Under the pieces are notes generated by a model. That model made no database searches, was not told where the DNA came from, and saw nothing but the letters and a program-made list of their open reading frames with translations. A stretch of DNA of 63,249 nt, the filler included, from Globobulimina sp. (lineage: Eukaryota), in the NCBI GenBank assembly GCA_003354225.1. It is 28 parts of 28 records of this genome, joined end to end, with 100 filler letters (N's around TTAATTAATTAA, not from the genome) between each part and the next. Parts side by side here need not be neighbours in the genome. Positions count along the whole stretch, not along the records: positions 13,582 to 15,744 come from PIVH01008516.1; 27 more parts are not named here. One strand, written 5' to 3'. The first letter of the stretch is position 1, and each line of letters starts with the position of its first letter. This document shows positions 13,582-15,844 of the stretch, one piece after another. The translations under genes were made by a program, and so were the position numbers.

Positions 13582-14663
13582 GAATTCCAGAACCATTTGC
13601 AATTCCAACAGGGAGCAGTCGAATTAAATTTAGCTGCACCATAACCACAGTGGCTGCCACTGCAATGGATGGATTATATACTAATCCACTCAAAATTGTC
13701 ACCAATTCCCTCACAATCCATCCAGCGGATATTTGCACAGCGCCCGGCCATGACAAGCGCCAATAATCAAGCAAACCGAGTTTAGAACAAACAACATCGA
13801 ATGGCAACGGTTTAAAGATGAATGAATATCCTTTATATGATAATAAAAGTGCGGTCATAATGGTGCTAAACAATAACATTAGATCCAATACTATGGCACA
13901 ACCAATATAACCAAAATCAAACAATATCACAAACATATAATTTAAAGGGATGGACACAAAAAAACTGGTTGCTACAATCGCAAATAATTCAAAGTTATAC
14001 GATAAACTTTGTCCAACCCTTTGTAAAATGGCCAAAGTAACCATGAAATATGGAAACGGTAATAATGCCATGCAATAATTTGAAATGATTTCCATTGGAA
14101 CATTGCTGCATAAGTCAGCTGGTGAGCCAATGAAACATAGTACGTTTCCACCATAAAACAATAGCACAGATAATGGCAGTTCTACTAACATACATACTAT
14201 AAATGCACGTTGTACGTACACTGCAATCAGTTGCGTGTGATTTGAACCAACAGCCTGAGGTATTAATGTCCATAAACCTGCAGTATGTATGAGTTGATAA
14301 TCAGAAGGTTGTCATATATATATATAGATATCCAGATATAATATTACCTGAAGCAAACCCCCATGATACTCCAATTGCAGACATATTGGCGAATGAATAT
14401 GCCATTCCTGTGCCAGACAATATTTGTGATGCATTCGATAAATGGCCTAAGAATATGGCTGATATTGTTCCAATGCAAACTTCAAAGATAATGGATAGCC
14501 CGATTTGTAATGATAGTTTAAAAACGATATGTGCTTCTTTAAGGATAGACGTTTCAAAAACAAATATGTCTTTTTTATTGATTGTATGATATTCATTCTT
14601 GTTCACCAGCTTAGTTAATGGAGAAGTAATATTTACATCGAGTGGGGGTGTGGGTGTTGCCAT
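13582..14663 (-). CDS. MATE family transporter, 3'-partial
   Basis: Intron 14278-14347 gives GFASG|LWTLIPQAVGSN; FLGHL, YVQRAF, RLSWPG. Confidence 0.88.
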
Positions 14664-14854
14664 GAATTTTCAAGTTCGTGCACTTGCTTAGATGATGAAG
14701 GACATAGTTTAATTGACTACTGCCAACTAACTTTTTTTCTACTACTACTACTTAAATACTTGAAAAACACTCATCCCATTCCTCCCCTGACCAGATTATA
14801 AACTGAAAAAGTCATTTGAAAAATAGTCCTCCACAGTCCACATAGGAATTAGGT

Positions 14855-14936
14855 AAGCACCTAGCTCAATTGGTAGAGCATTGGTTTGAATGGAAAGCAA
14901 ACCAAATGGATGTAGGTTCGAATCCTACGGTGATGA
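14855..14936 (+). tRNA. tRNA-like element (pseudo-tRNA or tRNA-derived head); isotype unassignable
   Basis: A box/D arm TAGCTCAATTGGTAGAGC; T arm GTAGG-TTCGAAT-CCTAC; anticodon arm extended (TTGGTTTG/CAAACCAA, 9-nt loop); acceptor stem only 4-5 of 7 pairs. Confidence 0.7.
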
Positions 14937-15440
14937 GATGGATATGGAATGGATGAATGGAGTCTATTATTATTAAATAGATACGAGCCTCTGCTATGAC
15001 ACGCATGCTCCACAAATACAACAATAAAATTAATTATGTAGCGTGAAAATGCAGTATATCAAACTGCATCTTTATCACGTTGCATTATACAAATTATGGT
15101 GGATTGGATGGATTAATTGGATTTGTTTGTGCCGCATTAGAGAGAGAGAGATGCGGCGCAAAGTTGATTGGATAGCAAATAATTATTGGATTATTACGAT
15201 GATGGCCTAGCACATAGCCATCATCACCACAACTAACAACACAAAATTTGAAAAATTGAAAAAAAGAAAGAAAAGAGGGTGGTCTCGGATGACCACGAAC
15301 TAAATGAAAAAAAGAAAAAATTGGAAAAAAAAGAAGTAAAGAATTGGTGGTGACAAGTCACCACGGATTGAATAGGAAAATTGAAAAGAAAAAGAAAGAA
15401 AAAAAGGATTTATGGTGCAATTTAAAAGTTATTTTTTTTT
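14855..15440 (+). ncRNA. Candidate long Pol III structured RNA (tRNA-like head, hairpin array, oligo-T end)
   Basis: Hairpins at 15036-15085, 15126-15162, 15198-15225, 15279-15296, 15347-15364; no TTTT on + strand until T9 at 15432-15440. Confidence 0.5.
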
Positions 15441-15844
15441 GTGTTTTTTTTCGGTGCTTTTTTTTAACCGAATATTATGTTAATATACAAACCGTAGCAC
15501 ATACTGGTCTTCGAAGCGCAATAAAACGCAACCATACAGCCGGGAAAAATGTGCCTAAAAAGACGTTAATGATGATGTCTACCCATGCCACTGAGCAGCA
15601 CTATGACCAATACTTGGATGGGACGACCAGTCTGTATGCAATGTATAGCCAACCACTGTGTTTAACAATTTATTCGGCGTAAATGCGTGATGACAGCATT
15701 CGTGAGCAATGACCCAAACACCCGTAAAAAACGCACATGGACATNNNNNNNNNNNNNNNNNNNNNNNNNNNNNNNNNNNNNNNNNNNNTTAATTAATTAA
15801 NNNNNNNNNNNNNNNNNNNNNNNNNNNNNNNNNNNNNNNNNNNN

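Follow-up and report, generated by a model that had tools for sequence, protein, structure and literature searches.

The Globobulimina sp. assembly GCA_003354225.1 holds a locus at which a tRNA-like sequence with internal Pol III promoter elements is followed by a regular string of hairpins and, far downstream, by a T-run. The question that such an arrangement raises is whether it marks a single RNA gene or a unit of another kind. A sequence-only reading had favoured one novel structured ncRNA of 580 nt, and had listed a polycistronic small-RNA precursor and an unusual tRNA-derived SINE as further options. The window, which is the whole 63,249-nt stretch of DNA that was analysed, consists of ~28 contigs of ~2.16 kb each, separated by linkers of the form N44-TTAATTAATTAA-N44 (for example at 15745-15844), and the feature lies on the contig at 13582-15744. 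Because the stretch is made of joined contigs and does not represent a single locus, gene neighbourhood beyond 13582-15744 is meaningless. Eukaryotic-type proteins in the stretch include a cytochrome b561/b5 reductase fusion, a PUL protein and an EF-hand protein. The evidence set out below indicates that 14700-15417 is probably one truncated arm of a many-copy, foldback-like, SINE-like interspersed repeat of an AT-rich eukaryote.

Copies of the locus are numerous. An exact 27-mer that spans the head/linker junction was found in a metagenome contig (L001) and in a contig (L002) of a 3.1-Mb MAG (G001) that is titled 'Gammaproteobacteria bacterium isolate Glo_16'. This MAG gave 18 matches on 13 contigs, and matches to the central core of the repeat lie on 3 further contigs. 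Since L016, one of the repeat-bearing contigs, holds a gene for histone H3 (Pfam 4.4e-20) beside its copy, the repeat contigs of G001 are eukaryotic sequences inside a bacterial bin, and were probably binned there for the high coverage of the repeat. The copies compared here come from L001 and from ~13-16 short eukaryotic contigs of that one public MAG (541-2791 nt), a small sample of short contigs from probably one host, in which the assembly of repeats is poor and no unit was seen complete with both outer ends. The L001 copy is 92.5% identical to the window copy over 14895-15416. Within the window, a blastn search of 14700-15480 against all 63 kb returned only low-complexity matches and the internal repeat of the tail, and the remaining 27 contigs contain no copy of the repeat. 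In run X1 the word depth is 6.39 over the single-copy flanks (13582-14676), and the summed depth over 14750-15406 is 880-20,900, a figure that does not equal copy number because all matching contigs are summed, tRNAs of other organisms included. Genuine tRNAs of such organisms may contribute to the X1 peak at the B box. The X1 contigs that match the 2163-nt stretch number 238, fall into identity bands of 80/65/53/40, and lie mostly over 14750-15406.

The contig that carries the window copy begins with a divergently oriented MATE transporter gene (Table 1), whose protein is 52% identical at best to its closest database relatives. The gene has a 70-nt intron with GT..AG borders (14276-14345), and contigs from runs X2, X6 and X7 are joined across it, for which reason these contigs may be cDNA. 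Of the runs listed as containing the sequence, none is registered as RNA. At the other end of the contig, a desaturase-like fragment reads HECCHH where the first histidine box would normally stand, and its frame is broken after ~40 residues. A version of this sequence that is 6-8% different is covered very deeply in runs X2, X6 and X7, and the fragment looks like a decayed paralogue.

Table 1. Features of the feature-bearing contig and of one related contig (window coordinates unless a contig is named)
Feature	Position	Strand	Basis or remarks
MATE transporter gene	13582-14663	-	Pfam MatE; ATG at 14663
Block A, outermost common part, TAATTGACT..CTAACTAACTTTTTT..TACTTAAATAC	14700-14762	+	85% to L004, 79% to L010
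Block B, subfamily-specific leader upstream of the head	14763-14854	+	81-83% to L002, L004, L007
tRNA-like head	14855-14936	+	Rfam RF00005, ARAGORN with introns allowed, RNAfold
A box TAGCTCAATTGG	14862-14873	+	Direct reading of the sequence
B box GGTTCGAATCC	14915-14925	+	Direct reading of the sequence
GGAT/GGAAT-rich microsatellite-like linker	14937-14962	+	Direct reading; copies vary in length; (GGAAT)n in L016
Conserved body block, ..GAGCCTCTGCTATGACACGCATGCTCCACAAAT..	14963-15035	+	94% to L001, 80% to L002
Hairpin 1, 11-bp outer and 7-bp inner stem	15036-15085	+	-20.6 kcal/mol, z -6.21; inner stem identical in L001
Hairpin 2, (GA)n loop	15126-15162	+	z -6.44; duplicated or missing elsewhere in the family
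Hairpin 3, GATGATGGC/GCCATCATC	15198-15225	+	z -4.29; in L006 and L009 stem kept, loop changed
A-rich tail, ~65-nt tandem modules	15226-15417	+	Carries hairpins 4 and 5; 95.7% to L001
Hairpin 4	15279-15296	+	Within the A-rich tail
Hairpin 5	15347-15364	+	Within the A-rich tail
Non-family flank with T9 run at 15432-15440	15418-15440	+	Without alignment to the family core
Desaturase-like fragment	15582-15743	-	Pfam E-value 6.6e-4, below cut-off; right contig end
400-aa open frame	L016 1588-2790	-	Tail to tail with a tRNA-headed element

The flanks of the copies are unrelated to one another, being the MATE gene in the window, the histone H3 gene on L016, and other sequence on L004, L007 and L010, which fits dispersal and does not fit arrays. 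These observations bear on the possibility of a non-mobile repeat, satellite-like or produced by segmental duplication (for example subtelomeric), with a tRNA pseudogene inside. Modularity, tandem sub-repeats, higher-order repetition and inverted arrangements are all found in the family and would be at home in such a repeat; its copies, however, stand beside different single-copy genes (MATE in the window, histone H3 on L016), and the explanation is very improbable. The interspersed repeat preferred here is also distinct from a textbook SINE insertion. Many dispersed copies with target-site duplications had been named beforehand as the mark of an ordinary SINE; the dispersed copies exist, in unrelated flanks, whereas a search for target-site duplications at the 3'-truncated window copy and at L016 gave only chance-level, low-complexity matches of at most 9 nt. 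Neither the 400-aa frame of L016 nor a 54-aa frame of L010 belongs to a Pfam family, and no LINE partner or other partner enzyme was identified, nor were element termini; the string ..KFKYLGL.. in the L016 frame may recall LINE reverse transcriptases.

The head of the window copy matches the Rfam tRNA model RF00005 at 47.6 bits on the + strand (gathering threshold 29), and its cloverleaf score passes the curated threshold. The fold read from the sequence, with intact A and B boxes, an aberrant anticodon arm and a weak acceptor stem, was borne out. Two acceptor pairs are non-standard in the RF00005 alignment, and the anticodon loop has 11 nt against 3 model positions. No seven-pair acceptor stem is formed, and the minimum-free-energy (MFE) structure from RNAfold is a cloverleaf whose acceptor stem has 4 pairs only and whose anticodon arm consists of an 8-bp stem and a 9-nt loop. 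ARAGORN at default settings made no tRNA call at the head; with introns allowed, it called one with an 8-nt 'intron' at 36/37, off the canonical 37/38. The head has neither a seven-base anticodon loop nor an intron at the canonical site, and while it keeps the A and B boxes of Pol III genes, it cannot be a working tRNA. The same defects are shared across the family: the heads of L002, L004 and L008 score 37.9-40.7 bits with an identical 11-nt loop insert in the Rfam tRNA model, the two acceptor mismatches of the window head recur in L002 and L004, and the acceptor stems of L008 and L010 have 4 pairs only. The L010 head is more diverged, in L007 and L012 the head is reduced to its 5' part, and L013 has another type of tRNA-like head on a tail and core that it shares with the window type.

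A genuine intron-containing tRNA gene that happens to be followed by unrelated chance palindromes is for these reasons extremely improbable. The Rfam score above threshold and the 8-nt intron that ARAGORN can model speak for a gene; against it stand the acceptor stems, with two mismatches in the window, L002 and L004 and 4 pairs in L008 and L010, and an intron position that would be non-canonical. Chance palindromes are likewise a poor description of hairpins that are enriched 44-fold (4 perfect stems of at least 7 bp with at least 3 G-C pairs in 504 nt, against 11 in the ~60.4 kb of the rest of the window) and that form part of the same repeat as the head. As a separate observation, L011 carries an AT-rich tRNA-like gene at 541-614 (+) with a score of 35.3 bits, a perfect 7-bp acceptor stem and TTTT directly after it, ~200 nt upstream of a 5'-truncated repeat arm.

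All five hairpins that had been reported downstream of the head are present, with single-hairpin z-scores of -3.05 to -6.44, and against shuffles the 504-nt body gives z-scores of -4.43 on the + strand and -5.61 on the - strand. Their stems are 6-12 bp long, except for the 18-bp stem of hairpin 1, which has a bulge, and hairpin 1 begins 100 nt after the head. The statement that several stem mismatches are G-U compatible on the + strand only holds true for the window copy. Hairpins 1, 2 and 5 of the window copy fold 3-5 kcal/mol better on + than on - (-20.6/-15.8, -18.3/-13.0 and -13.0/-9.9 kcal/mol, respectively); the mean energies of body shuffles are -87 (+) and -71 (-), and the folding advantage of the + strand lies within composition, because an excess of G over C on + already favours that strand. 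Across copies, G.T mismatches in stems number 17 against 20 A.C mismatches, and of 11 copy segments 8 fold more stably on +, as composition predicts. Thus z-scores, the G.T/A.C count and MFE by strand gave no strand-specific structure beyond composition.

Comparison of copies gave a similar picture. A MAFFT alignment of eight rows, poorly in register at hairpin 4, yielded no significant covariation; 79.1% of cells are paired against 77.8% after shuffling, and 84 of 500 shuffles reach as high a value, so the compensatory changes looked for in the stems did not materialize as a signal. By eye, hairpin 4 shows a change from C-G to G-C in L002 and L006 and from T-A to C-G in L009, and such double changes that keep pairing are suggestive only as a sign of conserved structure. 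The absence of TTTT before the T9 run at 15432 was confirmed, the + strand being free of TTTT from 14736 to 15432. This stretch of 697 nt is the fourth longest of its kind in the window and mildly unusual, with 93 of 2000 dinucleotide shuffles of 14855-15431 likewise lacking TTTT, and the absence follows from the A-richness of the strand. Rfam searches gave best snoRNA scores of 13.5 bits, where 100 is the threshold, and of 11.5 bits, where it is 50, and a best miRNA score of 18.9 bits (threshold 45, on the - strand), and with scores so far below the thresholds an identity as snoRNA or miRNA was rejected.

These data also weigh on a functional multi-copy family of Pol III ncRNAs or small-RNA precursors, in which RNase P/Z would cut off the head and the hairpins would give rise to small RNAs. 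Hairpin arrays recur after the same head with unrelated sequences (window type and L016 type), hairpin 4 has the pairing-preserving changes seen by eye in L002, L006 and L009, and hairpins 1, 2 and 5 are more stable on + in the window copy. Such a precursor is nonetheless distinctly improbable, as the pair count is at shuffle level (84 of 500 as high), the strand bias does not exceed composition, no Rfam snoRNA or miRNA family comes near threshold, and modules appear and vanish among copies. Stems of 6-12 bp are, in addition, too short for Dicer-type precursors. The narrower proposal of a single novel 580-nt structured ncRNA gene was not upheld, given the many dispersed copies, the lack of significant covariation and the absence of strand structure beyond composition.

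The turnover of modules is better accommodated by the repeat-arm reading, under which the hairpins would be palindromic sub-repeats that multiplied in tandem, rather than RNA genes in their own right. Joints in X1 contigs skip modules at 15098-15177, 15166-15250 and 15271-15308, and back-joints from 15164/15168 to 15119 point to a doubled hairpin 2 in part of the copies; on L005, hairpin 2 occurs two times, and hairpins 3 and 4 are lacking. On L016, (GGAAT)n comes after the same head, and then six 39-nt modules whose hairpin is another one (GCCGTC..GGCGGC), and L013 joins its other head type to GGTGGTGAT..CACCACC modules. The motif ACACGCATGCTC of the body block is present in L010 too. Within the A-rich tail of the window copy, 15251-15352 and 15316-15417 are 70.8% identical. 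Hairpins are modules that have been gained, lost or duplicated among copies, and the body is a mosaic.

Family homology in the window runs from ~14700 to 15417. On the left, homology starts ~90-155 nt upstream of the head and not at the head itself. Of seven copies with a visible 5' flank, four have block B (window, L002, L004 and L007) and three have block A (window, L004 and L010), and L008 and L010 share only ~20 nt with the window immediately before the head. Block B has a summed depth of 1516 in run X1 (14750-14822), against 6.39 for the flank. Beyond block A homology ends and the flanks differ between copies; a unique X1 contig stops at 14740, and the X2 contig of the MATE gene stops at 14698. 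Block A lies 37 nt from the MATE ATG, with the gene divergent to the repeat, and the repeat copy is located in the promoter region of the MATE transporter. Block A adjoins the start of a divergent frame in two copies, the MATE gene in the window (block A at 14700-14762) and a 54-aa ATG frame on L010 (block A at 158-212), and its minus strand carries the motif TATTTAAG; block A may be a promoter or part of one. Upstream of the copy on L004, positions 1-290 hold a GTAAAT-rich minisatellite and a ~90-nt palindrome (197-287) that are unrelated to the family.

On the right, ATGGT is followed in other copies by additional modules and, after these, by the core, whereas the window continues with unrelated sequence. 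The right flank of the window copy does not match the family core, and the core palindrome is absent from the whole window with up to 3 mismatches allowed. The T9 run at 15432 is accordingly flank and lies outside the family, since the window past 15417 is unrelated to the core and the palindrome is absent. The window copy consists of one arm only, which ends at 15417 without a core, and it has lost the core and the second arm. None of the listed contigs crosses 15417/15418, which by itself is uninformative about the junction, and the junction may be an assembly join. Run X1 has no cover at 15407-15625, and runs X2, X6 and X7 have little or none over the head, with missing cover being evidence in neither direction.

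What the window copy lacks is visible in its relatives. At the end of the tail, L001, L005, L009, L011 and L013 have a ATGATGATGAG..CATCATCAT hairpin, beyond which lies a core of ~130 nt that is conserved, and these five contigs, which are all those that follow the tail far enough, reach a core with the exact palindrome CTGACAGTTAACTGTCAG. L018 likewise has the 18-nt palindrome without a mismatch, and L019 and L020 hold part of the core. On both strands, the invariant palindrome is surrounded by T5-T10 runs, and the core is asymmetric, in identical fashion in all copies. All four contigs that continue beyond the core (L001, L009, L013 and L018) enter a second arm in reverse complement, and the unit is therefore foldback-like, with two heads that point inward; on L013, a tRNA-like head stands at either end of the contig in this orientation. 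As in foldback elements, the arms of the family are built of tandem sub-repeats. Identity between the arms within a unit is 92.7%, 90.2% and 92.2% in the three units tested, and cross-unit arm pairs are mostly at 85% identity or less. Because the arms match within each unit, the dimer evolves as a unit and not the monomer, and, judged from these sequence comparisons, the dimer is probably also what spreads. That the arms are 90-93% identical argues against an assembly artefact.

In 12 of 12 arms, T4-T10 runs occur on the sense strand 20-75 nt before the palindrome centre, and in 11 of the 12 these are T5 or longer. Arms of the window type (L001, L005 and L009) are otherwise free of T4, a single T5 in L001 (right arm) being the exception. 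T4 runs inside arms occur in L001 (+220), L002 and L004 (+59), L010 (+246) and the L013 modules.

Of the three options raised by the sequence-only reading, the unusual tRNA-derived SINE comes closest. The conserved head with A and B boxes and the largely T4-free arm that ends in T-runs agree with it; the 90-155-nt leader and the inverted dimers do not. An ordinary tRNA-derived SINE, that is a Pol III transcript copied by a LINE enzyme, would have to treat dimers and leader as secondary, produced by insertion into the tails of other copies or by a master copy with read-in. Several features are those expected of a SINE: A and B boxes that are kept while the acceptor stem decays, A-rich arms mostly without T4, homology that begins only ~20 nt upstream of the head in L008 and L010, a 5'-truncated arm on L011, and window-type and L013-type heads on one tail and core, which is typical SINE logic. 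Set against these are the summed depth of block B, which is about that of the body, and its presence in 4 of 7 copies; a conserved asymmetric core and arms matched in three of three units, which argue that the dimer spreads; the lack of target-site duplications at the window copy and L016; and the loss of the 3' head with retention of the 5' head in L007 and L012, the reverse of LINE-type truncation. An ordinary SINE is thus unlikely, although the two head types on one tail keep classic retroposition a live alternative. Mobility at the DNA level is the more likely process, and a foldback type of it is preferred because the asymmetric dimer is the unit.

Pieced together from related copies, a family unit begins with a leader of ~90-155 nt, followed by the tRNA-like module, the conserved body, a string of G+C-rich hairpins with A-rich spacers, the ~130-nt core and then the second, inverted arm. 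Each head would drive Pol III transcription through its arm, inward, with a stop at the T-runs of the core. It is plausible that Pol III would transcribe from the head, and the long Pol III transcript proposed earlier would be a reasonable model for an arm of the repeat. The unit may spread whole, as a non-autonomous mobile element.

Comparison with known systems places the element between categories. Foldback transposons of the Drosophila FB type have long inverted arms of tandem sub-repeats around a middle segment. The family resembles them in its long inverted sub-repeat arms and in the match of arms within a unit, and differs in that its arms hold a tRNA-like Pol III module and its middle is an 18-nt palindrome flanked by T-runs. 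In Entamoeba, working tRNA genes lie in tandem arrays with short tandem repeats between them. Both systems combine tRNA-type sequence with short tandem repeats at high copy number, but the heads of the present family are defective and its copies are dispersed inverted dimers. In plant tRNA-snoRNA dicistrons a tRNA is followed by a snoRNA of the box C/D or H/ACA class, and a dicistron of this type was rejected on the snoRNA scores given above. In the tRNA-miRNA RNAs of murine gammaherpesvirus 68 (MHV68), hairpins abut the head and have stems of pre-miRNA length. A gene of this type was likewise rejected, as no hairpin of pre-miRNA length stands behind the head and the best miRNA score falls well short of threshold. 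These viral tRNA-miRNA-encoding RNAs (PMC4337559) share a tRNA-like Pol III head, hairpins and a T-run with the window copy, and differ from it in that its first hairpin lies 100 nt downstream, its stems are 6-12 bp (18 bp and bulged in hairpin 1) and its locus is a repeat.

Two further comparisons concern SINEs and their domains. The tRNA-derived SINEs include modular 'jigsaw' superfamilies (PMC4758252), and the family shares with these SINEs a tRNA module with A and B boxes, swapped body blocks, an A-rich tail, diverged and dispersed copies, and differing heads on one tail. It departs from SINEs in that homology starts 90-155 nt upstream of the head and not at it, in that its arms lead into a common core and a mirrored arm where a SINE would have its 3' tail, and in that neither target-site duplications (window copy and L016) nor a LINE partner were found. 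The V domain in MER6 (PMC6887750), a SINE domain inside a non-autonomous DNA transposon, sets an example of SINE-type sequence that is spread by a DNA element which carries it. In MER6 the domain is central and is conserved in mammals; in the present family the whole of head and tail makes up the arm. The element is SINE-like in parts and foldback-like as a whole.

A bolder version of the foldback reading would make the family an undescribed mobile element, a foldback unit whose arms are convergent Pol III units that run from the head to the T-runs flanking the palindrome, with the hairpin arrays kept as part of the design. The arrays would in that case be kept across subfamilies whose hairpin sequences are unrelated, for example as small-RNA substrates or for the element's own propagation. 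This joint claim is tentative and, taken as a whole, rather unlikely. Among the papers that a limited literature search listed, none deals with foldback units that have tRNA-like heads, and the word 'undescribed' is weakly founded.

For the interpretation of such loci, the pattern of a tRNA head, regular hairpins and a distant T-run is the signature of a repeat family and not of a unique structured RNA gene, which removes a false lead. It also reveals that a public bacterial MAG contains binned contigs of the repeat. The family is a hybrid repeat of an unusual sort, from a eukaryote that has been little sampled; a tRNA-like Pol III head, an A-rich modular tail and swapped heads are combined in a foldback-type unit, at the centre of which lies a palindrome with perfect conservation. 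If true, the design of convergent Pol III units would be a new way to build a non-autonomous element.
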